64,000 bases of DNA from Minisyncoccota bacterium (GCA_041658325.1 JBBAAI010000001.1:279266-343265), one strand, 5' to 3'. Positions 1 through 46,212 are shown, counted from the stretch's first letter. Numbers and translations are program-made. The notes: generated by a model not told the origin, from the sequence alone.

Positions 1-45
1 ATTTAAAATAATTGCTTTTTAAGTTTTTTATGTTAAGCTCTATTT

Positions 46-354
46 ATGTTAAAAATAAGATTACAAAGGATAGGCAGAAAGAACGACCCATCATTCCGGG
101 CTGTTTTGACTGATTCGAAAAATAGCACCAAAAGCGGAAGATTTTTAGAAATACTTGGCACCTATAATCCGAAAGCAGGAGAGAAAAATTTAAATGCTGA
201 TAGGATAAAATATTGGATGAGCAAAGGAGCGAAATGTTCAGATACGATGCATAATTTTTTGGTGCACGATAAAGTAATAGAAGGGAAGAAAAAAAATGTT
301 TTGCCAAAGAAAAAGCCGACAGTTAAAAGGAAGGAGTTGAAAGCGAAAAAATAA
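46..354 (+). CDS. rpsP: 30S ribosomal protein S16 with Lys-rich C-terminal tail
   Basis: The N-terminus MLKIRLQRIGRKN...FRAVL matches the bS16 signature. Gene order rpsP, KH protein, trmD is the conserved operon context. Confidence 0.9.
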   Translation: MLKIRLQRIGRKNDPSFRAVLTDSKNSTKSGRFLEILGTYNPKAGEKNLNADRIKYWMSKGAKCSDTMHNFLVHDKVIEGKKKNVLPKKKPTVKRKELKAKK

Positions 355-455
355 CTTGCCCGCCTTTGGAGGGTTTTGTATAATTACAGGTATAGCAGTA
401 TGTCAGGTCGTAACACTGCAAAATAAAAATTAAAAATATAAATTCAGAAATACAT

Positions 456-797
456 ATGGAAGACGCAGACAAGATATTTTTGGAATATGTAGTAAAAGCT
501 CTCGTAGATAATCCGAACGATGTAAAAATTGAAAGGACTGTTGACGAAATGGGTGTGCTCATTACTCTTACCGTAAATCCTGCCGATATGGGTAAGATTA
601 TCGGAAGAATGGGAAATACTGCAAAAGCTATCCGCACCTTGCTTCGCATTATTGGTATGAAGAATAACGCTCGCGTTAATCTAAAGATCAATGAACCGGA
701 AGGAAGCGTAAGACCAGAAAGACCAGCTGGATCCATGAGCTCTGCACCAACGATGAAGACCGTTGATCAGGCGATGGAAGACTTGAAAGGAATTTAA
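456..797 (+). CDS. KH-domain RNA-binding protein (YlqC/UPF0109-like) with C-terminal extension
   Basis: The segment VDEMGVLITLTV...GKIIGRMGNTAKAIRTLL is a KH-type fold with a GxxG motif. It lies between rpsP and trmD, as ylqC does. Confidence 0.65.
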   Translation: MEDADKIFLEYVVKALVDNPNDVKIERTVDEMGVLITLTVNPADMGKIIGRMGNTAKAIRTLLRIIGMKNNARVNLKINEPEGSVRPERPAGSMSSAPTMKTVDQAMEDLKGI

Positions 798-841
798 GTT
801 AAAAAATCCCCCGAAAGGGGGATTTTTGTTATAATATAAAA

Positions 842-1498
842 ATGCGTTTTCATATCATTACAATTTTTCCAGAGATTTTTGATTCATATTTAAATGAGTC
901 TATTATTGGGCGGGCGATAAAAAATAAATTAATTTCAGTAAAATTTTATAATCCAAGAGATTTTATTAAGGCTCCTAAAAATAATTATCGGCCGGTTGAT
1001 GACAAACCTTATGGTGGCGGTCCGGGTATGGTAATGCGAGCAGAGCCAATAATTAAAGCAATAGAAAAAGCCATTTCCAAAACTAAAAACAAAAAGAAAA
1101 CAAAAATTATTTTATTTTCTCCATCTGGTAAAAAGTTTACTACAAGCTATGCAAAAAATTCCGCAAAAAAATATACTGATATTATTTTAATTTCTGGTAG
1201 ATATGAGGGCATAGATGCACGGGTGCAGAAAATGTTTAAAGCAGAAGAAATTTCAATAGGGGATTATGTTTTAACTGGTGGAGAACTGCCAGCTATGGTT
1301 TTAGTAGACTCTATCTCTCGTCAGATTCCGGGAGTTTTAGGCAAATATGAATCCCTAGAAGAAGAACGAGTATCCTCTAGTGAAGTTTATACGCGTCCGG
1401 AAGTTTTAAAATACAAGAAGAAAAATTACAAAGTTCCAAAGGTTTTGCTTTCCGGAAATCATAAAAAAATAGAGGAATGGAGGAAAGGGCAAAACTAA
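842..1498 (+). CDS. trmD: tRNA (guanine37-N1)-methyltransferase
   Basis: The N-terminus MRFHIITIFPEIF and the SPOUT-family motifs ISIGDYVLTGGELPAMVLVDSISR identify TrmD. Confidence 0.9.
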   Translation: MRFHIITIFPEIFDSYLNESIIGRAIKNKLISVKFYNPRDFIKAPKNNYRPVDDKPYGGGPGMVMRAEPIIKAIEKAISKTKNKKKTKIILFSPSGKKFTTSYAKNSAKKYTDIILISGRYEGIDARVQKMFKAEEISIGDYVLTGGELPAMVLVDSISRQIPGVLGKYESLEEERVSSSEVYTRPEVLKYKKKNYKVPKVLLSGNHKKIEEWRKGQN

Positions 1499-1739
1499 AC
1501 AGAAGAATCCACAACATATATTTGACAAAAAAGCTGAAATAGAGTAGGCTGTTTAGGATTCATTGATTGAGTATCGGATGCAATCTCCGTTTTATTATAA
1601 GGCTGTAAAAAGCATTAATTTAATGTTATCCGAAGTTAGCTAATAAGAAGCAAAAAGAAGTAAGAGAAAAGCACCTTTTCGTCTGTTTTTCTTTTATTTT
1701 TGTTTATTTTTCTTGTTGCTATCTGGGGACTTAATCAAC

Positions 1740-4700
1740 ATGCAAGTAGATACAAAGCGTCCAAAGAAGTATTTTTCTAGATACAAAAAACCTTTAGTAG
1801 AATTTCCTAATTTGATTGAAGCTCAAGTAAAGAGTTTCAAATGGTTGGTAGAGACCGGGATCGGGGAAGTCTTTAAAGAATTTTCTCCGATTATTGATTA
1901 TTCTGGAAAAAAATTCCAATTAGAATTTACTTCTTTTTCTCTAGGTGAATCTAAAATTGACGAAAACAATTCAAAAATAAATAAACTTTCCTACCAAGGA
2001 TCTTTGAAGGCGCGGGTAAAATTAACTAACAAAATTTTAGGTACCGTTAAAGAACAAGAAATTTTTATGTCAGAGCTTCCTCTGATGACTCCGCATGGAA
2101 CATTTATTATTAATGGAGTAGAACGTGTCATCGTACCCCAACTTGCGCGATCTTTTGGAGTTTTCTTTACAGAGTCAGAAAGCAAGGGTACTAGATATTT
2201 TGGTGCAAAAATTATTCCAGCTCGTGGTGTCTGGATTGAAATAGAATCTGAATCTGATGGGGGAATTTATATCAGAATAGACAAAAAAAGAAAATTTCCC
2301 GCAACAGCATTGTTGCGTGCTATGGGTTATGAGACGAATGAGATGATTCTAAAGGCATTCTCACAAAATCCGACCGCAGAAGAAACTATCAAAGCTTCTT
2401 TAGCAAAAGACGGAATAAAAAGCTTAAATGAAGCATATATTGAAATTTATAAACGTCTTCGAGATGGTGATATGGCGACTGCTGACAACGCAAAGGAGTT
2501 TATTAATTCTTTATTTACCGCAGAACGTTATGACCTTTCTCCTGTTGGACGATTTAGATTTAATCAACGTTTTGATAAATCAATGGAAGAAGATGAAATG
2601 GCTCGTAGGATAATTTCTAAAGAAGATTTAGTAACTGTGATTTCTCATATTATCGTTTTGAACAATACTCCGTTAGCCAAAGCAGATGATATAGACCACC
2701 TGGGTCAAAGACGTGTGCGTTTTGTTGGAGAAATCCTTCAGCAAAAAGTGCGTACTGGTATGATGCAAATCAAAAGAAACATTCAAGATAGAATGTCTAT
2801 CATTGATGTTGATACAGCTATGCCTATCCAAATCATCAATCAACGTCCACTACAAGCTCGCATTAAAGAATTTTTTACGACTAACCAGCTTTCTCAATTT
2901 ATGGCACAGGAAAATGTGCTTTGTGAAATAGAACATTTGCGCACTCTTTCAGCGCTTGGGCCAGGAGGTCTTACTCGTGAGCGCGCAGGGCTAGAAGTGC
3001 GTGACGTGCACCCTTCTCATTACGGAAGAGTTTGTCCGATTCACACCCCAGAAGGTCCGAACATTGGGCTTATTTTGCATCTTTCAACTTACGCAAAAAT
3101 AAATGATTTCGGAATTATTGAAACTCCTTATGTAAAAGTAAAAAATGGCAAAATTACCAGTGAAATGGTTTATTTAAATGCGCTTGAAGAAGAAAAATAT
3201 AACATTGCACATGCCGGAACTCCTTACGATGAAAACGGAAAAATAACTGAGGAAAAAGTAGAAGCGAGAATTAAGACAGAACCCGGAACAGTTTCTCGCG
3301 ATCAGATTGATTTTATTGATGTAGCTCCCAATCAAGCCTTTTCTATTGCTACCTCAATGATTCCATTTTTGGAACACAATAATGCAAATCGTGCTTTGAT
3401 GGGAAGTAATATGCAGAAACAAGCTGTGCCTTGTGTGCTTCCAGAAATGCCACTCGTTGCAACTGGTGTTGAAAAATTAGCCTCACGGAATTTAGGTAGA
3501 TTGGTTATTTCACAAGAAGAAGGTGTCGTGTCTTATCTAGACGCAAAAAAAATAATTGTTAAAGGAAAGAAAGAAGTAACTTATAATTTGGTTAATTTTT
3601 TAAGAAACAATAATTTCGCTGTTTTTCACCAACGTCCATTGGTAAATATTGGGGATAAAGTAAAAAAAGGTGATGTCTTAGCAGATACTAGTAGTACGGT
3701 GGATGGACAGATTTCAATAGGACAAAATATTTTTGTTGCGTTTTTGTCTTGGTCTGGTTCTACTTACGAAGATGCGATTATAATTTCTGAACGTCTTGTT
3801 AAAAAAAGTAAATTTACTTCAGTTTATGTTGAAGAATTTACTTGCGTGGTTCGTGATACTAAACTTGGGCCTGAAATCACAACTCGAGATATTCCAAATG
3901 TCGGGGAACTCAAATTAAAAGACTTAGATGAAGATGGTATTGTTCGTATTGGAGCAGAAGTAAGAGAGAATGATATTCTAGTTGGGAAAATTACTCCAAA
4001 AGGAGAGACAGAACTTACTCCAGAAGAAAGGCTTCTCCGCTCAATCTTCGCTGAAAAAGCACGTGATGTAAAAGACACTTCTCTTCGTATGGAGCATGGT
4101 AAACGTGGACGTATTATTAATGTAAAGATTTTTTCACGTGACCTAGGACATACTCTTGAGGCTGGAATTATTAAAAAAATTGTTATTGAAGTTGCACAGA
4201 TCAGAAATATTTCAGTTGGAGACAAACTTTCAGGAAGACATGGAAACAAAGGAGTTATCTCAACAATTCTTCCAGAAGAAGATATGCCTTACACCGCTGA
4301 TGGTACGCCAATAGACATTATTCTTTCACCGCTTGGTGTTCCTTCTCGTATGAACCTAGGACAAATTTTAGAAATTCATTTAGGTATGGCCGCAAATAGC
4401 CTTGGTTATCAAGCTATCGTTCCGCCATTCTTGGGAGCTAGGCATGAAGAAATAAAAGAAGAGCTAGTTAAAGCAGGACTTCCAGAAAATGGTAAGTTAA
4501 AACTTTTTGATGGACGCACTGGAGAACCGTTTCAACAAGATATTGCTGTTGGTTATATGTACATGCTCAAACTTCACCACATGGTGGAAGACAAGATTCA
4601 CATGCGTTCGATTGGACCTTATTCTCTCATTACCCAACAACCTCTTGGTGGAAAAGCTCAAGGTGGAGGACAAAGATTTGGAGAAATGGAAGTGTGGGCT

Positions 4701-4910
4701 CTGGAAGGTTATGGTGCAGCTTATACACTTCGCGAAATGCTCACGATTAAATCTGACGATATTCTTGGTCGATCTGCTACGTTTGATTCTATTATCAAAA
4801 ATGAAACAATCAGGCCACCAAATTCTCCCGCATCCTTTAACGTGTTGCTCAATTATTTGAGAGGCCTCGCGCTTGATGTGGATTTAAAAAAAACTGGAGA
4901 TAATGAGTAA
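1740..4910 (+). CDS. rpoB: DNA-directed RNA polymerase subunit beta
   Basis: This is a long ORF with canonical beta-subunit motifs: the rifampicin-cluster region SQFMDQ-like FMAQENVL, GEMEVWALEGYGAAY and NLGQILE. I favour the ATG at 1740, which has a GGGGA Shine-Dalgarno. An alternative in-frame TTG lies at 1713. Confidence 0.93.
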   Translation: MQVDTKRPKKYFSRYKKPLVEFPNLIEAQVKSFKWLVETGIGEVFKEFSPIIDYSGKKFQLEFTSFSLGESKIDENNSKINKLSYQGSLKARVKLTNKILGTVKEQEIFMSELPLMTPHGTFIINGVERVIVPQLARSFGVFFTESESKGTRYFGAKIIPARGVWIEIESESDGGIYIRIDKKRKFPATALLRAMGYETNEMILKAFSQNPTAEETIKASLAKDGIKSLNEAYIEIYKRLRDGDMATADNAKEFINSLFTAERYDLSPVGRFRFNQRFDKSMEEDEMARRIISKEDLVTVISHIIVLNNTPLAKADDIDHLGQRRVRFVGEILQQKVRTGMMQIKRNIQDRMSIIDVDTAMPIQIINQRPLQARIKEFFTTNQLSQFMAQENVLCEIEHLRTLSALGPGGLTRERAGLEVRDVHPSHYGRVCPIHTPEGPNIGLILHLSTYAKINDFGIIETPYVKVKNGKITSEMVYLNALEEEKYNIAHAGTPYDENGKITEEKVEARIKTEPGTVSRDQIDFIDVAPNQAFSIATSMIPFLEHNNANRALMGSNMQKQAVPCVLPEMPLVATGVEKLASRNLGRLVISQEEGVVSYLDAKKIIVKGKKEVTYNLVNFLRNNNFAVFHQRPLVNIGDKVKKGDVLADTSSTVDGQISIGQNIFVAFLSWSGSTYEDAIIISERLVKKSKFTSVYVEEFTCVVRDTKLGPEITTRDIPNVGELKLKDLDEDGIVRIGAEVRENDILVGKITPKGETELTPEERLLRSIFAEKARDVKDTSLRMEHGKRGRIINVKIFSRDLGHTLEAGIIKKIVIEVAQIRNISVGDKLSGRHGNKGVISTILPEEDMPYTADGTPIDIILSPLGVPSRMNLGQILEIHLGMAANSLGYQAIVPPFLGARHEEIKEELVKAGLPENGKLKLFDGRTGEPFQQDIAVGYMYMLKLHHMVEDKIHMRSIGPYSLITQQPLGGKAQGGGQRFGEMEVWALEGYGAAYTLREMLTIKSDDILGRSATFDSIIKNETIRPPNSPASFNVLLNYLRGLALDVDLKKTGDNE

Positions 4911-4929
4911 TAAACAATAAATCAAAAAT

Positions 4930-7900
4930 ATGAAAACATTAAATACAACTGAATTTGATCAAATTGGACTTCGGCTCGCATCTCCAGAGCAAATAAAAGA
5001 ATGGTCTTTTGGAGAAATTACTAAACCAGAAACGATAAATTATCGTACAGGCAGATCTGAAAGAGGAGGTCTTTTTGACGAGAAAATTTTTGGTCCGGAA
5101 AAAGATTATGAATGTTATTGTGGAAAATATCGCCGAATTCGTTACAAAGATATTATTTGTGAAAAATGTGGAGTTGAAGTTACTCGTTCTATCGTGCGTC
5201 GAGAACGCATGGGACACATAGAACTTTCTACTCCAGTTTCGCATATTTGGTTTTTGCGAGGAGTTCCTTCGAGAATGAGTATTCTTCTTAATATATCTGT
5301 TTCTGATCTTGAAAAAGTGATTTATTTTGCCGGGTATATTATCACAAAAGTTCACGAAGATGAAAAAGAAACAATTTTGTCTAATCTAGACAAAGAATAT
5401 AAAACTAAATTAAAAAATTCAGCGGATGATGATACTCGCGAGAAATTAAAAACATTACTTTCTATAACCAAAAAAGAAATTGGAGAAATTTATGAAGGAA
5501 AAGTTTTGAATGAAATATCTTTCCATCATTATTCTCTTAAATACGGTACCTGTTTTGAGGCTAATATTGGAGCGGAAGCCATTTACTCTATTTTTAAAAA
5601 TCTCGATTTAAACAAACTAAAACATCTTACTGAAAAGATGTTAGAAAAAACGAGTGTAGCGGAAAAGGAGAAATTACAGAAAAGACTTTCTCTAATTCGT
5701 GCGATGAATTATGCAGGAATTCGACCGGAATGGATGTTTTTGACTGTTATCCCAGTTATTCCACCTGTTCTTCGTCCGATGGTGGCCCTAGACGGGGGGA
5801 GACACGCTACTTCTGATTTGAATGATCTTTATCGTCGAGTAATAAATAGAAATAATCGTTTGAAAAAATTAAAGGAAATTAATGCTCCAGATGTGATCTT
5901 GCGAAATGAAAAACGCATTATTCAAGAAGCAGTGGATGCCTTGATTGATAACTCTATTGCTAAACAAAATGATTCTGCTGCGATGAGTCAATCTCAAAAA
6001 CGTCCCCTTAAGTCGCTTTCAGATAACTTGAAATCCAAGCAGGGTCTCTTCCGTCAAAACTTGTTAGGAAAACGTGTGGACTATTCAGGCCGTAGCGTCA
6101 TCGTTGTTGGTCCTAATCTTAAACTCAACCAATGTGGATTGCCGAAGCATATGGCGTTGGAACTTTTCCGACCGTTCGTAATTTCAAGAATTTTGCTAGC
6201 AGAACTTGCTTTTAATATTCGAGGAGCCAACAAACTCATAGAAGAACGTTCACCTGAGGTTTGGGCGATATTAGAAGAAGTTATTCAAGGTAAATACGTA
6301 CTCTTGAACCGCGCTCCTACTTTGCACCGTTTAGGTATTCAAGCTTTCAATCCGATTCTAATTGAAGGAAATGCTATTCAAGTACACCCTCTTGTTTGTC
6401 AGGCTTTTAACGCTGACTTCGATGGAGACCAAATGGCCGTATACGTGCCCTTGCTGGAAGAAGCACAGTGGGAAGCAAAAGAGCTGATGGCAGCAAATAA
6501 AAACTTACTTAAACCACAAAACGGAGAACCGATCGTGAACCCACGTATGGATATGGTGTTAGGAGCTTACTGGATGACTAAATCAGTAGATGGAGAAGAA
6601 GGTGAAGGCAAATATTTTTCAAGTCCAAACAGCGCGATTGCCGCCTTTGAACACGGGGTTGTAACTTTGCGTGCGAAGATAAAAGTTCTTGCTACTGACA
6701 GACATAAATATAAAAAATTCAATGGAGAAATTTTTGAAACTTCTGTAGGCAAATTATTTTTTAATAGTATTTTGCCGAGCGATTTTGCTTATATTAGTGA
6801 TGAAATGACTCACGACAGATTGTCTTTTCTTTTAGACGAACTTATTTTACATTGTGGTGTAGAAAATACTCCTTCCATATTAGATAAAATTAAAGAATTT
6901 GGATTTAAGTATTCTACGGTTTCTGGTACTACTTGGGGGTTGGATAATGTTTCTCTTTCTCCTGAAAAACCAAAAATTATTGCACAAGGTAAAAAACTTG
7001 AAGAGGAAATCATCTCTCAGTGGAGTGAAGGTCTTTTGTCAGAAGAGGAAAAATATCAAAAGATTATTGAAATCTGGATGCACACAAAGAAAAATTTGGA
7101 AAAAGTTTTACCTAATACACTTGATAAAAATGGTTCAGCTTATGATTTATTTACTTCTAAGGCTAGAGGAAACATGAGTACTTTGTCTCAAATGATCGGG
7201 ATGATTGGTCTTATCCAAAACAACCAAGGTAAAATATTGGAATTTCCAATTATTCCGTGTTATCAAGAAGGACTTTCTCCGATTGAATATTTCGTTATTA
7301 CTCACGGTGCTCGTAAGGGTGCTTCTGATACCGCTCTTAACACTGCAAAGGCTGGATATCTAACACGAAGATTGGTGGATGTGGCGCAAGATGTGGTTAT
7401 CACGGAAGAAGATTGTGGCACAAAAGAGGGGAAAATAGTTACGCGAGAAAATATTTCTGGAATTGAAATTCCACTTTCAAAAAATATTCGTGGACGAGTG
7501 CTCGCAGGTGATCTTAAAGACAAAGACGGTAAAGTGGTTTATAAGAGAGGATTTTTAATTACCAAAGAAGAAGCTCGTAACATAGAGGGAGCAGGATTTA
7601 CGGAAGTATTCGTCCGTTCACCCCTTACTTGTAAAACAGTACACGGTCTTTGTGTACAATGTTATGGTCTTGATCTAGGAAGAAATCATTTAGTAGAACA
7701 AGGTGAAGCTGTAGGCATAATAGCTGCTCAGGCGATCGGTGAACCGGGTACTCAGTTGACGCTACGAACGTTCCATGCCGGAGGTGTGGCTGGAACTGAT
7801 ATCACTACGGGTCTTCCACGTGTTGAGGAAATATTTGAAAGAAGAATTCCCAAAAACCCTGCAATTATTTCTGAGACCGACGGAGAAGTGATTGAAATAA

Positions 7901-8538
7901 AAGATAAAGATGGTAAAGAAAAAACAATTAAAGTTTTATCTGATACTAAGGTTGACGGTAAGAGCAATGAAATGGAGTATGAAGTGGCTTTTCGTAGAAC
8001 CCCGATTGTTAAAGTAGGAGATTCTGTAAAGAAAGGACAACTTTTAACTGATGGATCAGCCGATATTGCAGAAATATTTAGATTAGGAAGCAAAGAATTA
8101 GTTGAAGAATATATAATTTCAGAAATAAACAAGGTTTATGAACTTCAAAGCGCTTCAATTTCTAGAAAACACACAGAAATTATTGTTCGTCAGATGTTTT
8201 CTCGTAGAAAAATAAAAGATACCGGGGAAACTAATTTCTCAATTGGTGATATCGTTGAACATACAGATTTCATAGAAGAAAATGCTAGAGTGGCGGAAAA
8301 TGGAGAAAAAGAAGCAAAGGCAGAAACAGTAGTATTGGGAATTACTGAAGTATCTCTACGTACAAAGAGTTGGTTGTCGGCTGCGTCATTCCAAAACACT
8401 AACCGTGTTCTTATTGAAAATGCGATAAAGGGTGGAGTTGACTCTCTCCGAGGCTTAAAAGAAAACGTCATAATCGGGCGCTTAATTCCAGCTGGAACTG
8501 GATTTAAAAATAAGTTTTCTCAAGTTAAAGAGGAGTAA
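4930..8538 (+). CDS. rpoC: DNA-directed RNA polymerase subunit beta'
   Basis: The zinc-binding CxxC...CxxC motif is present near the N-terminus. The catalytic NADFDGD motif appears as [13 protein letters not shown]. The gene immediately follows rpoB. Confidence 0.95.
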
Positions 8539-8547
8539 AAAATAATT

Positions 8548-10287
8548 ATGAACTCTCCCGTGCAAAAAATTAAGGAGAGGCTATCAATTGAAGAAGTAGT
8601 CTCTTCTTACATAAAGCTCGACCGAGTAGGTCCGAATTTAAAGGCTAAGTGTCCGTTTCATAACGAGAAAACCCCGTCGTTTTTCATCTCGCCTGATCGA
8701 GGTACTTATTATTGTTTTGGCTGTGGAGCGAAGGGTGATATTTTTACTTTCGTGGAAGAATTTGAGGGTCTTGATTTTAGAGGAGCCCTCAAATTGCTTG
8801 CCGGTAGGGCAGGAGTAGTGTTAGAAACCTTCAATCCAAAGGAAGAAAGCGAAAAAGAAAAAATATACAGAATCATGGAAGAAGCCTCTTTGTTTTTTGA
8901 AAAAAACTTGAAAGAAAATATTGAAGTTTTATCTTATCTTAAAAACAGGGGATTAAACGATGAAAGTATAAAAAATTTCCGTATTGGTTTTGTGAAGAAT
9001 GATTGGAGAGAATTATACCAGTATCTTACGAGTAGAGGTTTTAAAGATAGCGAATTAGAAAAAGCTGGTTTGGTGAAAAAAACAGAAAAAGGTTTTTATG
9101 ATAGATTTCGTGGACGCATAATGTTTCCCATGGGAGATTCTAGTGGGCGTATCGTCGCTTTTTCTGGAAGAATTTTTGTGGATGACGGGAAGTCGGCCAA
9201 ATATTTAAATAGTCCCGAGACCCTAATATTCAATAAATCTTCCGTTCTTTTCGGTATAGACAAAGCGAAAGAGACAATCAGAAAAAACAATTTTTCTATT
9301 CTCGTGGAAGGACAAATGGACTTGATTCTAGCGCACCAGGCAGGATTTAAAAATACCGTAGCCTCATCTGGCACAGCAATGACAGATTCAATATTGTCAA
9401 AAGAAAATATTATCAATAACCTTGGACTTGTTACTAGATTGTCGAAAAATATTGTCTTGGCTTACGATTCTGATAAGGCAGGCATTAATGCTTCAAATCG
9501 CTTTGCCAAAATTGCTTTATCTTTAGGAATGGATGTAAAAGTAGCAGATATACCAGAAGGTATGGATCCAGCTGATTTGATTTCTAAGATGGGGACAGAA
9601 GCTTGGCGAGAAGCGATAAGAAATTCAAAACATTTTATTGAATTTATGCTCGCTAGAATATTAAAGGATACTGACGATAAACGAAAAGTAGGCAGAGAGA
9701 TAAAAGAACGTTTACTTCCTTTCGTAAATGATTTAGAAAGTTCTATAGAAAAATCACATTTTATTACTTTAATTAGCAATCAATCTAGTATTCCAGAAAG
9801 TGCTTTAATAGAAGATTTAAAAAAGGTTGAATTCGAACAAAAACACGAAAAAGAAGATACAAAAATTGCTATAGAAAATGTAGAAAAAAAATTAAGAAAA
9901 GATCCAATCGAACGCAGGCTTCTAGGTATAGCTTTTTGGCAAGAAAGTTTGAAAATTAAAAAAATAGACCCGGAATTAATTTTTAAAAAGCTAGCCTTGT
10001 CTATAGGCTCTGGGCCGAAGGAGCAAGTAAAAGAAAAATATAAGGAAGTAAAAGAAGATTTAATCTATGAAGTAGAAGAATTTTATTTAAATGATGAAAA
10101 TTTAGAAAAAGATGTGAACGAAATGCTTCTTAGTATTGAAGAAGAGTATTTAAATGAAGAATTAATAAAAAAAATGATGGAATTGCAAAATTTAAAAGGG
10201 AAGGAAGAAGAGGTAGAAATTTTTAAAAAAATAAATGAATTAAATAAAAGAAAAGAAGAAATTAAAAATGGTCGTTTAAAAAAGTAA
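8548..10287 (+). CDS. dnaG: DNA primase
   Basis: The CHC2 zinc finger [30 protein letters not shown] is present. The TOPRIM region shows [13 protein letters not shown] Shine-Dalgarno precedes the ATG. The C-terminus is Lys/Glu-rich. Confidence 0.88.
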
Positions 10288-10292
10288 AATTT

Positions 10293-11519
10293 ATGAAGAA
10301 AAAAATAAAACCTAAAAAAATAAATAAAAATAGTAAAGCTTTGAAAAAAGTTAAGAAAAATAAAAAGATAAAAAAGATTATTAAAAAACCTAAAAAAATA
10401 AAGAAAAAAATTCTTAAAAAAGATAAAGTTAAAAAGTTATCTTTGGCCGAAAAAAAGGCTGAGGGGCTAGAACATCTTGCTAATACTATTATAGAAAAAG
10501 GGAGAAAGCGTGGGTTTATAACTTATGATGAGATATTAAAAACTTTTCCAGATATAGAAAATAATATTCTATTTTTAGACGAACTTTATGAAAAATTCGG
10601 AGTAGCTGGTATTGATGTGCTAGAGGGGGGGAATCTGCTTAACTTAGACATTGATTTAGATGACAAAGATTTGAATAAAGGAATCATGCATGATTCTATT
10701 CAAATGTATTTAAAAGAAATAGGACAGTATCCGCTTATTCATGCTGGTGATGAAAAAGATCTAGCGAAGCGTATTGAACACGGAGACCTAGAGGCAAAAA
10801 ACTTGCTTGCTCGTGCTAATTTGCGTCTAGTTGTTTCCATTGCCAAAAAATACGTAGGCAGGAGTGCAAATTTAACTTTGCTTGATTTGATTCAAGAGGG
10901 GAATTTAGGTTTATTTAAAGCAGTGGAAAAATTTGATTGGACCAAGGGGTATAAATTTTCTACTTATGCCACTTGGTGGATTCGTCAATCCATTACCCGT
11001 GCTTTGGCGGACCAATCCAGAACAATTCGTATTCCGGTACACATGGTGGAAACAATTTCTAAATATAAACAAACACATCGTAGATTGAGTCAGGATTTGG
11101 GACGAGAACCGTTGGCTGAAGAAATAGCAACTGAGATGGGCATACCGGTTGAAAAAATACACGTCATTGAAAATATTTCTCAAGAAACTGTTTCCCTAGA
11201 ACAGCCAGTAGGAGACGACGATGATAAATCAACATTAGAAAACTTTATTCCCGATGATAAAATTTTGCGTCCAGACCAGGAATCTTCTCGCAGAATTCTT
11301 TCGGACCAAATTCGAGAAGTTTTAGATGAGTTGAATCCAAAAGAGCGCAAGATATTAGAAATGCGCTACGGGTTACTTGATGGTATCCAGCATACACTAG
11401 AGCGGGTGGGGGAAGAGTTCGGCGTGACTCGTGAACGCATTCGTCAGATCGAAGCCAAAGTGCACGAAAAACTCCGCCAGCACGAAAAGATTGCAAGATT
11501 AAAGAATTATTTTGATTAA
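10293..11519 (+). CDS. rpoD: RNA polymerase sigma-70 factor with Lys-rich N-terminal tail
   Basis: Region 2 shows [13 protein letters not shown]. Regions 3 and 4 carry the [14 protein letters not shown]. About 50 aa of K-rich low-complexity sequence occupy the position where acidic region 1.1 normally sits. Confidence 0.9.
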
Positions 11520-11522
11520 ACT

Positions 11523-11552
11523 AAAAAATCCCCTGAACCCAGGGTATTTTTT
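11523..11552. terminator. Bidirectional rho-independent terminator between rpoD (+) and the dsbA-like gene (-)
   Basis: A ccctg/caggg stem is flanked by an A-run upstream and a T-run downstream. Confidence 0.4.
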
Positions 11553-11562
11553 AGTTAGCAAT

Positions 11563-12303
11563 TTATTTTAATGCAGCATCAATTTTTGGTTTTACCGTAG
11601 TGTATGATTCAGCTCCATCAATAGTAGAGACAATTTTACCATTCCTTAAAATAAATCCTTTTGGTGTACCAGTGACCCCAGCGCTAGCTCCTTCATTTTT
11701 TGAATCTGCGACAGCTTGTGCGTATTTACTATCATCGAGACATTTATCAAAATTAGATGTGTTTAAGCCGAGTTCTTTCGCAAAGGATTTTAAGTTTAGA
11801 TCAGAAAAGTTTCCTTCATTCTCTCCATTTTGGTGGGTGAAGAGGTAATCATGATATTCCCAAAATTTCCCTTGATCTCCAGCACACCTTGCAGCTTCAG
11901 CAGATTTTTGAGATTCAGGTCCTAGAAATGCAAAGTCTCGATAAACAAATTGCACACTTCCATTTTTTACATAGTCATTTATAATCCTAGATACAAAAGG
12001 AGTCCAAGTAGCATCTCTCTGTTGTAAAGATTGAACCAGGGATTGAGTTCCGGCAGAAAGAGGTTCTAGTCCAGAAATTACCCCACAGAAAGGACACTGA
12101 AAATCCTCATACATGACAACCGTAACTTTTGCACTTGGGTTTCCGAGTATTCTGTCTTCTTTATTAATTGGTGCCAAGGTTGCGACAGGAATTCCATTCC
12201 CTTTTTGGATATTAGGGTTTTTACTATCTTTTAATAATATTGCGCCAGCAATCAGAACTCCCACTATCAATATTGCTCCGGCTATTTGTTTTTGATCCTG
12301 CAT
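11563..12303 (-). CDS. DsbA-like thioredoxin-fold thiol:disulfide oxidoreductase, membrane anchored
   Basis: An N-terminal TM helix is followed by the CPFC active-site motif in YEDFQCPFCGV, and by a thioredoxin/DSBA-like C-terminal region. Confidence 0.7.
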   Translation of the reverse strand: MQDQKQIAGAILIVGVLIAGAILLKDSKNPNIQKGNGIPVATLAPINKEDRILGNPSAKVTVVMYEDFQCPFCGVISGLEPLSAGTQSLVQSLQQRDATWTPFVSRIINDYVKNGSVQFVYRDFAFLGPESQKSAEAARCAGDQGKFWEYHDYLFTHQNGENEGNFSDLNLKSFAKELGLNTSNFDKCLDDSKYAQAVADSKNEGASAGVTGTPKGFILRNGKIVSTIDGAESYTTVKPKIDAALK

Positions 12304-12396
12304 AATTTTGTTGGTTATTTGTAATAATGCTATTGTAGCATATTTTTTGATTGTGATATAATTACTATAATGATAAAGGTCTTATTATTAGCTAAT

Positions 12397-12417
12397 TGTT
12401 CTGCTTTACGCGGAACA
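12397..12417. promoter_or_regulatory. Imperfect inverted repeat 14 nt upstream of the DUF378 start
   Basis: The arms are tgttctgc and gcggaaca with spacer tttac, which is 7 of 8 complementary. Candidate operator. Confidence 0.2.
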
Positions 12418-12430
12418 GAATATAAATAAT

Positions 12431-12715
12431 ATGTGTTGTAATGGAAAACATTGGGGTGGTTGCGTTGTTCATAAGACTTGTAAGGTTTTAGTAATGGTAG
12501 GTGGTTTAAATTGGGGTTTGGTGGGTTTGGGAATGTTAATGGGTAGTAAATTGAATGTTGTTAATATGGTTTTAGGATCTTGGCCGACAGCTGAGGCAAT
12601 TGTCTATCTATTGGTAGGTGTCGCAGTAGTTATGAAACTCTTTAGTTGCAAATGCAAGAAGTGTATGGAGGCATGTGCCACTTGCGGTGTTGAAAATATG
12701 GACAAAAAGATGTAA
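12431..12715 (+). CDS. DUF378-family small membrane protein with Cys-rich N- and C-termini
   Basis: The VGGLNWGLVG motif is characteristic of DUF378. Cysteine clusters are MCCNGKHWGGC at the N-terminus and CKCKKCMEACATCG at the C-terminus. Confidence 0.6.
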   Translation: MCCNGKHWGGCVVHKTCKVLVMVGGLNWGLVGLGMLMGSKLNVVNMVLGSWPTAEAIVYLLVGVAVVMKLFSCKCKKCMEACATCGVENMDKKM

Positions 12716-12740
12716 AGATTGTTTTCTTTTAACAAAAAAA

Positions 12741-12770
12741 GCCTCTTTTAAACAAGAGGCTTTTTTTGTT
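12741..12770 (+). terminator. Rho-independent terminator
   Basis: The hairpin gcctctt TTAAACA aagaggc is followed by TTTTTTT and preceded by an A-run. Confidence 0.6.
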
Positions 12771-12808
12771 TACATTTTAGTCTAAAAATGATATATTAAG
12801 CGCAATAC

Positions 12809-14053
12809 ATGACTTCAATTTTTGATATTATATTTTATATATTAATCTTTTTGTCTGTCTACGTGCAGGTGTTTTTTTTCGTTACTTTTTTGGAAAATAG
12901 AAAAAAAATAATTATTAGAAATGGAAAAATTAAACTAGGATTTTATCCTGCTGTGACAATCGCTGTGCCTTGCTGGAATGAAGAAAAAACCGTTGAAAAA
13001 ACAATCCATTCACTTTTAAACTTAAATTATCCAAAAGAGAAACTAAAAATATTTCTTATTAACGATGGATCCACTGATAATACTTTAAATGTTATAAATA
13101 AATTTTCCGGGTATCCTAATATAAAAATTTTTAACAAAGAAAATGGGGGAAAGTATACTGCTCTAAATTTAGCACTTGAAAATACAGAAACAGATTTTTT
13201 TGGTGGTCTTGATGCTGATTCTTTTGCAGACCCAGAATCACTTATTCGAATTATGAGTTATTTTGAGAAAGATCCTAAAACTATGGCTGTTGCCCCTTCT
13301 GTAATTGTATCTGATTCAAAAAATATTATTAAAAATGCCCAAAGAGCTGAATACAATATGGGGGTTTATTTTAAGAAAATGCTTTGTTTTTTGGAGGCTA
13401 TCAACGTTACCCCTGGACCTCTTACTATTTTTCGCAAGAAAGTTTTTAATGATTTAGGGTATTATCGTCACGGGCACAACACAGAAGATATGGAAATTGC
13501 TTACAGAATGCAAAAAAGTAGTTACAAAATAGAACATTGTAACGATGCGTTTGTTTATACTAATACACCAGGAACAGTTGGTAAACTTTATCGACAAAGG
13601 TTGCGTTGGATTTATGGTTTTATTAACAATACGATTGATTATAAAAATGTTTTATTTAAAAAAAGATATGGTAATTTTGCCATGTTTACTTTACCAATGG
13701 GGGTTGTTTCTATCCTTGCTGTTGGTTATCTTTTTGCTCGGGTAGCTTATGATGTGGGGCATTTTTTGTATTTAAAAGTTATGCAACTAAAAATAATTGG
13801 TTTTGATTTTTCTGTTAAAAATGTTAGTCTTGATCCATTTTTTATAAATACACAATTTTTTATATTTTTAGTTATTTCCATTTATATTCTAGTTATTTTT
13901 GCAATTATTTTTGGTCGAAGAATGTCCGAAGGAAAATCAGGTTTTTCTTTAGACATACTTTATTTTTTCCCTGTTTTCGGCCTGGTGGCTCCATTTTGGA
14001 TTATGAAAGCGATTTATAATACTTTTTTACACAGAAAACCGGCATGGAGATAA
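12809..14053 (+). CDS. Family-2 glycosyltransferase, processive type (NodC/PgaC/HAS-like), integral membrane
   Basis: An N-terminal TM helix is followed by a GT-A domain (AVPCWNEE, INDGSTD, DAD) and the processive-synthase QRLRW motif, then several C-terminal TM helices. Confidence 0.8.
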   Translation: MTSIFDIIFYILIFLSVYVQVFFFVTFLENRKKIIIRNGKIKLGFYPAVTIAVPCWNEEKTVEKTIHSLLNLNYPKEKLKIFLINDGSTDNTLNVINKFSGYPNIKIFNKENGGKYTALNLALENTETDFFGGLDADSFADPESLIRIMSYFEKDPKTMAVAPSVIVSDSKNIIKNAQRAEYNMGVYFKKMLCFLEAINVTPGPLTIFRKKVFNDLGYYRHGHNTEDMEIAYRMQKSSYKIEHCNDAFVYTNTPGTVGKLYRQRLRWIYGFINNTIDYKNVLFKKRYGNFAMFTLPMGVVSILAVGYLFARVAYDVGHFLYLKVMQLKIIGFDFSVKNVSLDPFFINTQFFIFLVISIYILVIFAIIFGRRMSEGKSGFSLDILYFFPVFGLVAPFWIMKAIYNTFLHRKPAWR

Positions 14054-16766: not shown

Positions 16767-16869
16767 ATGAATTAATATAGCAGAAAGCTGTGTTTTTTGC
16801 AAATTCTCCTCTTGTTCTGTAAAAGTTTTTTTCTTTGACCAAAAGACTTTTTTCGGGTAAGATGCTCTT

Positions 16870-24920: not shown

Positions 24921-24949
24921 TTGACAGTGGATAACTTGGGTGGTACACT
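24921..24949 (+). promoter_or_regulatory. Candidate sigma-70 promoter (TTGACA-17-TACACT) for the lexA-like gene
   Basis: A consensus -35 with 17-nt spacing. The -10 ends 14 nt before the ATG at 24964. Confidence 0.45.
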
Positions 24950-27780: not shown

Positions 27781-28196
27781 GTGCTTATATTTTGTTTATT
27801 ATTAATAATTCCCGCAGTTGGTAAACAAAAAGCCCACCACTAGGAAAGCCCGAAGGCTTTTATGCAAGTTTCCTCGCATAACGCGTTCAACGCCCCAATG
27901 ATGGGTTTTTTATGTTGAACGCGATTCATAACCATACTCTACTGTTCTTACAATGGAGGTTAGGTCTTATATTTATTTGATTGTTTAGGTATTATATCAC
28001 TTTGATATAGATTTACCATGCCATAGAGCATTATAGGCTTGCTATAGCAATAGCAGGTAAAATTATAGCTCATAAGAAAATCCTTTGTTTATAACCATGG
28101 GGACGGGAGGAGGGACAAATAAACATCACTAGAAAGAATATACTCATCCCTAAATCCATGCCTTTTTAAACTTTTTGTATTACAATTCCAATAGTT

Positions 28197-44630: not shown

Positions 44631-44981
44631 ATGGAGGGACTTAAAATATATAAAGAGGAACGTCCGTGGGGCGGATTTGAGCAATTTGTCCAGAATACTC
44701 TCTCAACAGTAAAAATTATTTTAGTAAAAAAAGATGAAGCCTTTAGTTTGCAGTATCATAACAACAGAAAAGAGTTTTGGAAAATTCTTTCCGGAACGCC
44801 AGAAATTACAATAGGGGATTCTGTTGTTCGGGCAAAAGAAGGAGATGAATTTGAAATACCACCGAAAACAAAACATCGTGTTCATTCTAGTGATACTGAT
44901 ACAGAATTTTTAGAAATTTCGCTTGGGGAGTTTGATGAAAATGATATTATAAGGCTAGAAGACAAATATGGCCGTGCTTAA
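44631..44981 (+). CDS. Cupin-2 domain protein, type-II mannose-6-phosphate isomerase-like
   Basis: ERPWGGFEQF...KIILVKKDEAFSLQYHNNRKEFWKILSGT...IGD...EGDEFEIPPKTKHRV...DIIRLEDKYGR matches the C-terminal cupin of GMP/PMI (RPWG...HxHR..EHW..VSG...HR..N..EDDIVR.EDxYGR). Confidence 0.65.
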   Translation: MEGLKIYKEERPWGGFEQFVQNTLSTVKIILVKKDEAFSLQYHNNRKEFWKILSGTPEITIGDSVVRAKEGDEFEIPPKTKHRVHSSDTDTEFLEISLGEFDENDIIRLEDKYGRA

Positions 44982-46212
44982 AAAAAGGAAAATAATTAAA
45001 AAAAAGAAAATTAAAATTGCTGTAAAAAAGAAAACAGTAATAAAAAAAGTTTCTCCAAAAAAGAAAAAGAAAGTTATTGTAGTGCGAAGAAAAATAATAA
45101 AGAAAAAGATTGTAAAAAAAACAGTATTGAAACCAAAAAAGAAAGGCAAAAAATTAGCAAAAATTTTAAAACTTTCCAGATCTTCGCGTAATCCAATTAT
45201 TGATCCAGGGGCACATTATTGGGAATCTCAAGCTGTCTTTAACCCAGCAACAGTTGTTTCAAATGGACGCATACACCTTTTTTATCGAGCTCTTGGTGGA
45301 GACGGTATTTCTCGTATTGGTTATGCTTCTAGTAAAGATGGAATAAATTTTGATGAAAGACTTTCTTATCCAGTTTATTTTTTGAAAAACGATGAAGAAA
45401 TGAAAAAGCATTGGCCTTATACTTCTCCCGCACGACCTGTTTATGACACGGCTCTCTATGCTTCAGGTGGAGGGTGGGGTGGTTGTGAAGACCCTCGTGC
45501 AGTGTTAATAGGAGATAAAGTATATATGACTGTTAATATTTTTAATGGTTGGAATTCTATACGGGTAGCGGTAATTTCGATTAAAGAGGAAGATTTATTA
45601 GATAAAAAATGGCTTTGGCAAGATTTTTCTTACCTCTCTCATCTAGGAGATAGGCAAAAAAATTGGCTTTTATTTCCTGAAAAGATAAACGGTAAATTTG
45701 CGATATTTCACAATTTAGATAAAGGTGATCCATCGCGGGTGTCCATTGCTTTTGTAAATAAGCTTGATACTTCTGAAACACCCTCCGGGAAGAATGCTCC
45801 AGATCCCCAGACTCTACCAGATCACATTGTGGCTTGGCATAAACGTACTCGTAGTGCCGCTGCTCCACCGATTAAAACCAAAGAGGGTTGGCTTCTTTTA
45901 TACCATGCTATGGACAAAGACAATTCTCGTTATAAATTAGGTGCATTATTGCTTGATTTAAAAGATCCGGAGAAAGTTCTTTATCGAGCCCAGCATCCGA
46001 TTCTTGAGCCAGAGACTTGGTATGAAAATGATTGGAAGCCAGGAATTATTTATGCGAGTGGCGCGATTGTGTTGAAAGATAAACTTTTTGTCTATTATGG
46101 AGGAGGAGATAAACACATCGGTGTAGCATCAATAAAACTCTCCGACTTGATAGATAGTATGAAAAAGAATGGATCGGTAAAATTAGAAAAAAACAAATCA
46201 CTAAAATTTTAA
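44968..46212 (+). CDS. GH130-like glycoside phosphorylase/hydrolase (DUF377 beta-propeller) with Lys-rich N-terminal tail
   Basis: After ~65 aa of K-rich sequence, NPIIDPGAHYWESQAVFNPA...FYRALG...IGYASSKDGINF is a GH130/DUF377 block. Repeated GW.LLYH and YYGGGD patterns are present. It overlaps the cupin gene by 14 nt. Confidence 0.7.
   Translation: MAVLKKRKIIKKKKIKIAVKKKTVIKKVSPKKKKKVIVVRRKIIKKKIVKKTVLKPKKKGKKLAKILKLSRSSRNPIIDPGAHYWESQAVFNPATVVSNGRIHLFYRALGGDGISRIGYASSKDGINFDERLSYPVYFLKNDEEMKKHWPYTSPARPVYDTALYASGGGWGGCEDPRAVLIGDKVYMTVNIFNGWNSIRVAVISIKEEDLLDKKWLWQDFSYLSHLGDRQKNWLLFPEKINGKFAIFHNLDKGDPSRVSIAFVNKLDTSETPSGKNAPDPQTLPDHIVAWHKRTRSAAAPPIKTKEGWLLLYHAMDKDNSRYKLGALLLDLKDPEKVLYRAQHPILEPETWYENDWKPGIIYASGAIVLKDKLFVYYGGGDKHIGVASIKLSDLIDSMKKNGSVKLEKNKSLKF

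Follow-up and report, generated by a model that had tools for sequence, protein, structure and literature searches.

The described gene clusters with which the present locus can be compared are the macromolecular synthesis (MMS) operon, arranged as rpsU-dnaG-rpoD in Escherichia coli and found as dnaG-sigA in Bacillus subtilis, and the rplKAJL-rpoBC cluster. For the N-terminus of the sigma factor encoded at this locus, the points of comparison are the tails rich in lysine (Lys), Ala, and Pro that are carried by the C-terminal domain of eukaryotic H1, by mycobacterial HupB, and by chlamydial Hc1, together with the N-terminal extension of Mycobacterium tuberculosis SigA, the first part of which is rich in Lys, Arg, Ala, and Pro. 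That extension is long and disordered, and function depends on part of it (PMC10011835). The locus described here, in which rpoB, rpoC, dnaG, and rpoD follow one another directly and the sigma factor begins with a Lys-rich tail, belongs to a 64,000-nt stretch of DNA from a Minisyncoccota bacterium (GCA_041658325.1 JBBAAI010000001.1:279266-343265), called the window below; coordinates are window positions unless a related locus is named. Going by the source names of nearly identical sigma proteins, we take the host lineage to be Candidatus Nomurabacteria/Paceibacterota, Parcubacteria of the candidate phyla radiation, and the organism to be a small-genome groundwater bacterium; the G+C content of the window is 30–41%. 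The explanation that probably accounts best for the whole is that the four genes form one operon and that it encodes a complete sigma factor with an added polyanion-binding tail, selected for its charge and composition.

A Conserved rpoB-rpoC-dnaG-rpoD Block

The block consists of four co-directional open reading frames (ORFs), the identities of which are unambiguous by Pfam:

1740–4910 (+), rpoB, RNA polymerase beta subunit, 1056 aa; Pfam Rpb2 domains 1, 2, 3, 45, 6, and 7 all found
4930–8538 (+), rpoC, RNA polymerase beta' subunit, 1202 aa; Pfam Rpb1 domains 1–5
8548–10287 (+), dnaG, DNA primase, 579 aa; Pfam Zn_ribbon_DnaG, DNAG_N, and Toprim
10293–11519 (+), rpoD, primary (group 1) sigma factor, 408 aa; Pfam regions 1.1, 1.2, 2, 3, and 4 above cut-offs

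An earlier note on this stretch, made from the sequence alone, had proposed such a contiguous block, and these four ORFs bear it out. The note put the intergenic gaps at 9–19 bp, which holds for rpoB-rpoC (19 bp) and rpoC-dnaG (9 bp) but not for dnaG-rpoD, where 5 bp were measured. It had also remarked on a short rpoB product (∼1057 aa); the length is right (1056 aa), but it is no oddity. The product, whose ATG start at 1740 is conserved in relatives, can be aligned without a break to solved beta chains of 1100–1104 aa and 1070–1072 aa, which we recognize as presumably cyanobacterial and plastid enzymes, and both the full domain set and a length near that of these 1070–1104-aa chains rule out shortness as a sign of something unusual. 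The protein is a compact, minimal beta subunit that has no insertions particular to the lineage, and there is nothing remarkable about it.

Gene order in relatives was mapped by tBLASTn with the window proteins, in a sample of one genome per species comprising 80 loci with sigma factors 68–95% identical to the window sigma. This synteny comparison across the lineage, which the earlier note had suggested as a check, favored the block: rpoB-rpoC-dnaG-rpoD was co-linear and on one strand in all loci reaching far enough upstream except a single one (L060), and the order was kept in about 75 species-level Nomurabacteria/Paceibacterota genomes. Median gaps in the relatives were 19 bp for rpoB-rpoC (at most 50 bp in 64/65), 23.5 bp for rpoC-dnaG (at most 50 bp in 50/74), and 6 bp for dnaG-rpoD (at most 50 bp in 72/77). 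A distant set was formed of 10 lineages whose sigma factors are at most 63% identical to the window sigma, and five of these contained the same four-gene block (L082, L083, L085 from Lloydbacteria, L087, and L089). The dnaG-rpoD pairing was kept in every related and distant locus examined. The statement in the note that dnaG and rpoD normally accompany rpsU describes the E. coli arrangement, whereas the dnaG-rpoD pair itself is what is kept here. No published description of the rpoB-rpoC-dnaG-rpoD order was found in the searchable literature.

Three of the distant loci, specifically L082 (1418–19828), L083 (1480–19934), and L087 (167–18569), have a co-directional run that extends beyond rpoD, in the order rpoB-rpoC-dnaG-rpoD-rpsP-KH-trmD-infA-rpsM-rpsK-rpsD-rpoA-rplQ-rplM-rpsI-grpE-dnaK-dnaJ. 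All RNA polymerase subunit genes are thereby on one strand, within ∼15 kb.

Promoter and Terminator Signals of the Block

Signals predicted to delimit the transcript were found on either side of the block:

1522–1550 (+), sigma-70-type promoter of the block; -35 element TTGACA at 1522–1527, 17-nt spacer, -10 element TAGGCT at 1545–1550
1557–1739 (+), predicted 5' leader of ∼182 nt with a stable predicted fold; box GATTGAGT at 1565–1572
11531–11554 (no strand assigned), intrinsic-terminator-like hairpin CCCTGAACCCAGGG, bidirectional, with T-runs on both strands, between rpoD and a DsbA-like gene

The promoter conforms to a signature, TTGAC-N17-19-TAnnnT, that is conserved in the alignment of regions upstream of rpoB. 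When this motif was sought within 400 nt upstream of each gene (background 0.12 per kb), it was present ahead of rpoB in 55/57 genomes, as against 0/64 for rpoC, 0/74 for dnaG, and 1/78 for rpoD, where ∼3 matches would be expected by chance in each set. The lineage-derived motif replaced a generic sigma-70 scan of positions 1–13000, which had returned 38 matches versus 37.9 expected, that is, chance level, and which missed the rpoB promoter because the -10 element of the latter is TAGGCT. A hairpin followed by a T-run occurred within 110 nt after rpoD in 38/80 loci; within the same distance, none was found after rpoB (0/65), rpoC (0/74), or dnaG (0/77).

The promoter motif also occurs elsewhere in the window, at 16835–16863 (+), 24921–24949 (+), and 38685–38657 (−), and ends 1–15 nt ahead of the start codons ATG 16870, ATG 24964, and, on the minus strand, ATG 38652. 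Because it sits just upstream of ORF starts at these positions, it behaves like a genuine promoter signature. Its placement there suggests leaderless or very-short-leader mRNAs, to which the 182-nt rpoB leader would be the exception.

We read the locus as the conserved form that the gene cluster for core transcription and replication priming takes in Parcubacteria, with rpoB-rpoC joined head to tail to the widespread dnaG-rpoD pair. Judged by the consensus-motif scans and hairpins, rpoB-rpoC-dnaG-rpoD are most likely transcribed as one mRNA. The single transcription unit envisaged in the earlier note is supported in this comparative sense, by a block that is kept, one conserved promoter, and no internal terminator-like hairpins, all of them features read from sequence only. 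Transcription would start at the conserved sigma-70-type promoter (1522–1550), pass through the unusually long structured leader (1557–1739), and end at the hairpin terminator after rpoD (11531–11554), and the core polymerase, the primase, and the housekeeping sigma factor would be made from the same message. Several observations weigh against this and would fit four genes that are adjacent without being one unit, with dnaG-rpoD, or rpoD alone, expressed from its own promoter in upstream coding sequence. Internal promoters for rpoD lie within dnaG in E. coli, and weak or non-canonical promoters inside the rpoC or dnaG coding sequence may be present here; weak consensus matches are found at 8517–8546 and 10262–10290. 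Between rpoC and dnaG, the gap is 51–200 bp in 18/74 genomes and greater than 200 bp, up to 2309 bp, in 6/74 genomes with insertions of 0.7–2.3 kb, so tight coupling is not universal, although the inserted genes are co-directional. Moreover, dnaG-rpoD stands without rpoBC upstream in five of the 10 distant lineages (L084, L086, L088 from Gracilibacteria, L090, and L091), which implies that the pair can be expressed independently and makes dnaG-rpoD the usual conserved unit; on the gene orders compared, its junction behind rpoBC appears to be particular to a subset of Parcubacteria. We nevertheless regard separate transcription as rather unlikely, since the weak consensus matches occur at chance frequency, the lineage promoter signature is found almost only upstream of rpoB, and terminator-like hairpins are missing from the internal junctions.

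Genes inserted within the block in relatives lie at the following positions of the respective loci. The co-directional inserts, mostly between rpoC and dnaG, include what by sequence appearance are a PemK/MazF-like small protein, an NYN-like protein, and a Cys-rich protein of 591 aa:

L001, 7602–8009, insertion
L002, 5641–7878, insertion
L012, 2312–3482 and 7232–7741, insertions
L015, 7343–8184, insertion
L032, 7442–8023, insertion
L042, 6195–7970, insertion

The block has the following neighbors in the window:

842–1498 (+), trmD, tRNA (m1G37) methyltransferase; Pfam tRNA_m1G_MT
11563–12303 (−), DsbA-like gene, convergent, downstream of rpoD

The trmD gene is a conserved upstream neighbor of rpoB, found there in many of the related loci as well as in L085 and L089, and is separated from it by the promoter and leader. 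Like the MMS operon of E. coli and the dnaG-sigA operon of B. subtilis, the block has dnaG and the primary sigma gene in direct succession on one strand, with a very short gap; however, there is no rpsU as first gene, rpoC ends 9 bp upstream of dnaG and is placed likewise in related loci, and no promoter signature precedes dnaG or rpoD, the block appearing to use the rpoB promoter instead. Similarly, it shares with the rplKAJL-rpoBC cluster an rpoC directly after rpoB (19 bp here) and a long leader upstream of rpoB that could act as an attenuator, but differs in having trmD upstream instead of rplJ-rplL, in having a dedicated conserved promoter between trmD and rpoB, and in a predicted unit that runs on into dnaG-rpoD rather than ending after rpoC.

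A Complete Primary Sigma Factor With Region 1.1

Two features at the N-terminus of the sigma factor have to be distinguished:

10293–10445 (+), Lys-rich N-terminal extension (tail) of sigma, residues 1–51, net charge +27, predicted disordered
10485–10634 (+), sigma region 1.1, Pfam residues 65–114 (folded unit ∼51–111); PF03979, 40.5 bits

PF03979 (Sigma70_r1_1) matches residues 65–114 well above its cut-off (40.5 bits vs. 22.5, E = 2.7e-10) and is carried by all 120 close homologues. It is followed, in order and above cut-offs, by Pfam regions 1.2 (134–166), 2 (172–244), 3 (253–329), and 4 (343–396). The protein aligns end to end, from residue 57 or 58 to 408, with SigA of Staphylococcus aureus, B. 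subtilis, and Clostridioides difficile, and the matches to solved SigA chains have E-values of 2e-101 to 2e-103. Within this alignment, residues 57–134 (region 1.1 and linker) lie opposite SigA region 1.1 of both S. aureus and C. difficile; their net charge is -9, and that of the matching segments is -13 and -10, respectively. AlphaFold places helices at 51–73, 78–84, and 92–104, with a predicted local distance difference test (pLDDT) score of 66–81 across residues 51–111, in a model that is modest overall (mean pLDDT 59.7, shallow alignment). The sigma factor is thus a complete group 1 factor of the Firmicutes type, with regions 1.1, 1.2, 2, 3, and 4 and one addition, the tail. Its homologues are named "RNA polymerase primary sigma factor" in the sources, and these names together with the adjacency to dnaG make it the predicted housekeeping sigma factor of the organism.

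The earlier note had instead described the Lys-rich tail as standing in place of the acidic region 1.1, which would leave a sigma factor without its auto-inhibitory module. The first 50 residues are indeed strongly basic, and four distant relatives (P0134, P0139, P0137, and P0131) are without a precomputed Pfam region 1.1 match. Replacement is nonetheless refuted for this protein by the Pfam match at 65–114, the alignment with Firmicutes SigA, the helices within 51–111, the charge of -9, and the presence of PF03979 in 120/120 homologues. Since region 1.1 is present and acidic, the Lys-rich segment is an extension in front of it and not a substitute for it, and the prediction in the note that DNA binding by free sigma would be altered loses its stated premise. 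A weaker form of that prediction survives, in that residues 1–133 have an overall charge of about +19, which may still influence such binding.

The Lysine-Rich Tail

The tail itself was correctly described in the earlier note as ∼50 Lys-rich residues: 30 of the first 58 residues are Lys, with a net charge of +27, and residues 1–49 have pLDDT values below 50 and no secondary structure in the AlphaFold model. The comparison of N-terminal charge with orthologues that the note had called for gave a uniform result, with a basic, MKK-type tail in 120/120 close homologues and net charges of about +19 to +35. Tail sequence and length vary among these 120 proteins, whereas their sigma bodies are 93–98% identical. 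The tail was kept in all 77 species-level genomes in which it could be delimited, with lengths of 34–104 aa (median 66), net charges of +18 to +40 (median +28), and 42.5% Lys. It also occurs in lineages with a sigma factor only about 50% identical, and many nearest representatives of the 50%-identity clusters have polybasic N-termini, some of them rich in Ala, Lys, and Pro; one such representative is in a genome neighborhood unlike the candidate phyla radiation (L091). The few distant relatives of the sigma factor with a taxon name come from Lloydbacteria, Moranbacteria, and Gracilibacteria, with Bacilli/Clostridia in one cluster (P0195), which gives the phyletic spread of the tail in rough outline.

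A tie between the tail and the gene order was considered and rejected, as tails are present on sigma factors without rpoBC upstream (L084, L086, L090, and L091); tail and gene order are therefore independent traits. P0148, from L087, where the block is present, has no called tail, though its contig is frameshift-ridden (2x).

Relative to the window proteins, the tail is enriched 5-fold in Lys, 2.1-fold in Val, and 1.4-fold in Ala and Pro, and depleted in Asp (0.04-fold), Glu (0.2-fold), and Phe/Tyr (at most 0.07-fold), as well as in Asn and Ile, which have AT-rich codons. AAG accounts for 31% of Lys codons in the tail versus 17% in window genes, and the longest A-run is at most 9 nt, a pattern that would fit a translated region from which slippery poly(A) is kept out. 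This composition and codon pattern argues for selection on charge and disorder over neutral A-tract expansion; what appears to be selected is the composition and charge of the tail, not its sequence.

Two other readings of the Lys-rich segment were weighed, that it is not translated at all and that it is translated but neutral. Under the former it would be A-rich non-coding DNA ahead of a later true start, a possibility for which the earlier note had allowed. In its favor, the DNA is rich in A, the ATG at 10293 lacks a clear Shine-Dalgarno sequence ahead of it, a TTG is available at codon 51, and NCBI calls one Lloydbacteria orthologue as 360 aa versus 454 aa in other gene calls. However, among the 77 genomes the tail contains no in-frame stop in 5177 codons, versus 540 and 386 stops in the other frames, and the relatives all keep an MKK... 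start a few bases past the dnaG stop (median gap 6 bp). Residue 51 varies (L, S, F, H, Y, and others), so the TTG is not conserved, and no further in-frame ATG occurs until codon 132, which already belongs to region 1.2, so that a start there would delete region 1.1. AAG enrichment and avoidance of long A-runs also count against this reading. We conclude that the tail is translated and hold the non-coding reading to be very improbable. We also think it unlikely that the tail is a low-complexity expansion that is tolerated and essentially neutral, produced by slippage in the A-rich DNA of an AT-rich, reduced genome and without a specific role in transcription. The rapid turnover of its sequence and length (34–104 aa) beside a nearly invariant sigma body would fit such an expansion, as would the low G+C of the genome (31–41%). 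In the same direction, and against a role confined to nucleic-acid binding, an unrelated GH130-like glycoside phosphorylase ORF in the window (44968–46212, +) has a polybasic N-terminal tail of ∼65 aa (MAVLKKRKIIKKKKIKIAVKKK...) that closely resembles the sigma tail; polybasic tails here are thus not restricted to nucleic-acid-binding proteins, and a more general role, or none, is possible. On the other hand, only the sigma gene and this ORF, 2/54 in the window, encode a 40-aa stretch whose net charge is at least +14. Neutral expansion is also difficult to reconcile with retention of the tail in 77/77 delimited genomes and in lineages ∼50% identical in sigma, with the near-exclusion of acidic residues, and with the depletion of the AT-favored Asn, Ile, Phe, and Tyr alongside enrichment of Val, Ala, and Pro, which have G/C-containing codons.

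For a tail under selection, a nucleic-acid-binding role is most likely by analogy. It would be a disordered arm that binds polyanions (DNA or RNA) non-specifically, like H1 and other Lys-rich tails. Electrostatic attachment of sigma or the holoenzyme to DNA or RNA is one possible effect, and compensation for the acidic region 1.1 another. The closest documented parallel on a sigma factor is the extension of mycobacterial SigA, which is likewise long, intrinsically disordered, non-conserved, and N-terminal on a primary sigma. The tail described here is shorter (∼50 aa vs. 207–225 aa in M. tuberculosis), consists almost purely of Lys, Val, Ile, Ala, and Pro, and stands ahead of a recognizable Firmicutes-like region 1.1; there is no sequence homology between the extensions, and the lineages are unrelated. 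Matches of solved mycobacterial SigA chains to the window sigma begin only at residue 149 or later. The sigma tail resembles the H1-like tails in its predicted disorder and in its composition, 42.5% Lys together with Val, Ala, Pro, Thr, and Ser and hardly any acidic or aromatic residues, but it contains more Val and Ile and less Ala than is typical of them and is attached to a sigma factor rather than a nucleoid protein. With the exception of the mycobacterial SigA paper, the searchable literature yielded no relevant description of a Lys-rich sigma N-terminus or of sigma or RNA polymerase work in bacteria of the candidate phyla radiation.

Two sigma gene calls in distant loci deserve mention. 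The Lloydbacteria sigma in L085 (10001–11365; P0271 vs. P0272) is 360 aa in NCBI and 452–454 aa, including the basic tail, in other sources. In L088 (2933–4822; P0130, Candidatus Gracilibacteria), the called sigma is 629 aa long, with C-terminal Pfam matches to adenylate kinase (Adk; PF00406 and PF13207). Either sigma and Adk are genuinely fused here, or the lineage has a reassigned UGA and the gene caller ran through a stop codon.

The rpoB Leader

The leader between promoter and rpoB has a predicted minimum free energy of -48.4 kcal/mol (z = -4.2 vs. shuffles). The invariant box GATTGAGT lies 2–12 nt after the predicted transcription start in 49/55 related genomes and is also present in the Lloydbacteria locus L085, at about 903. 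In a per-sequence helix search, the arms flanking the box appear to co-vary (gattc/gaatc, gagat/atctc, gattgaa/ttcaatc, cgga/tccg, and tatagc/gctat), with a shuffle control of the arms that separates weakly (at least 5 pairs in 71% vs. 41%). Compared with Rfam, the leader matched no family, either at the gathering threshold or with E relaxed to 5, and no consensus structure emerged from RNAalifold on 26 leaders, since their alignment has many gaps and does not keep the 5' arms in register. The leader hairpin is accordingly a lead rather than a finding, and the most promising lead in the region. The GATTGAGT region suggests either an operator with inverted repeats or a hairpin whose loop is conserved, and the leader could be an attenuator, an autoregulatory RNA, or an operator.

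A far more speculative picture, to which we assign little credence, is that Parcubacteria might place core polymerase, primase, and sigma on one autoregulated mRNA, with its conserved leader, in which a hairpin or inverted repeat presents the GATTGAGT box just past the start site, as the sensor and the polycationic sigma tail as a new module holding sigma or the holoenzyme on nucleic acid, perhaps on this very leader. Such an arrangement would constitute a minimal feedback circuit setting the capacity for transcription and priming in a cell that has very few regulators.

Two further RNA features of the window were recognized by Rfam above their gathering scores:

27845–27966 (−), LOOT RNA, 75.3 bits
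23162–23466 (−), bacterial RNase P class A, 109.3 bits

Implications

Both the block and the tail are variations on known themes, in sequences that were already public, and they do not overturn current understanding. The disagreement among gene callers over the sigma start (360 vs. 454 aa for one orthologue) matters for annotation. The tail indicates that primary sigma factors acquired disordered, charged extensions at the N-terminus outside Actinobacteria as well, and its position beside an intact region 1.1 offers a compact natural system for the roles that such tails may have in promoter search, in tethering to DNA or RNA, and in modulation of region 1.1. If the four genes are transcribed as one mRNA, transcription would set fixed proportions of core polymerase, primase, and housekeeping sigma in these ultra-small bacteria, an arrangement simpler than that of model bacteria, in which rpoBC and dnaG-rpoD are regulated separately, and one that would fit a lifestyle with few regulators.

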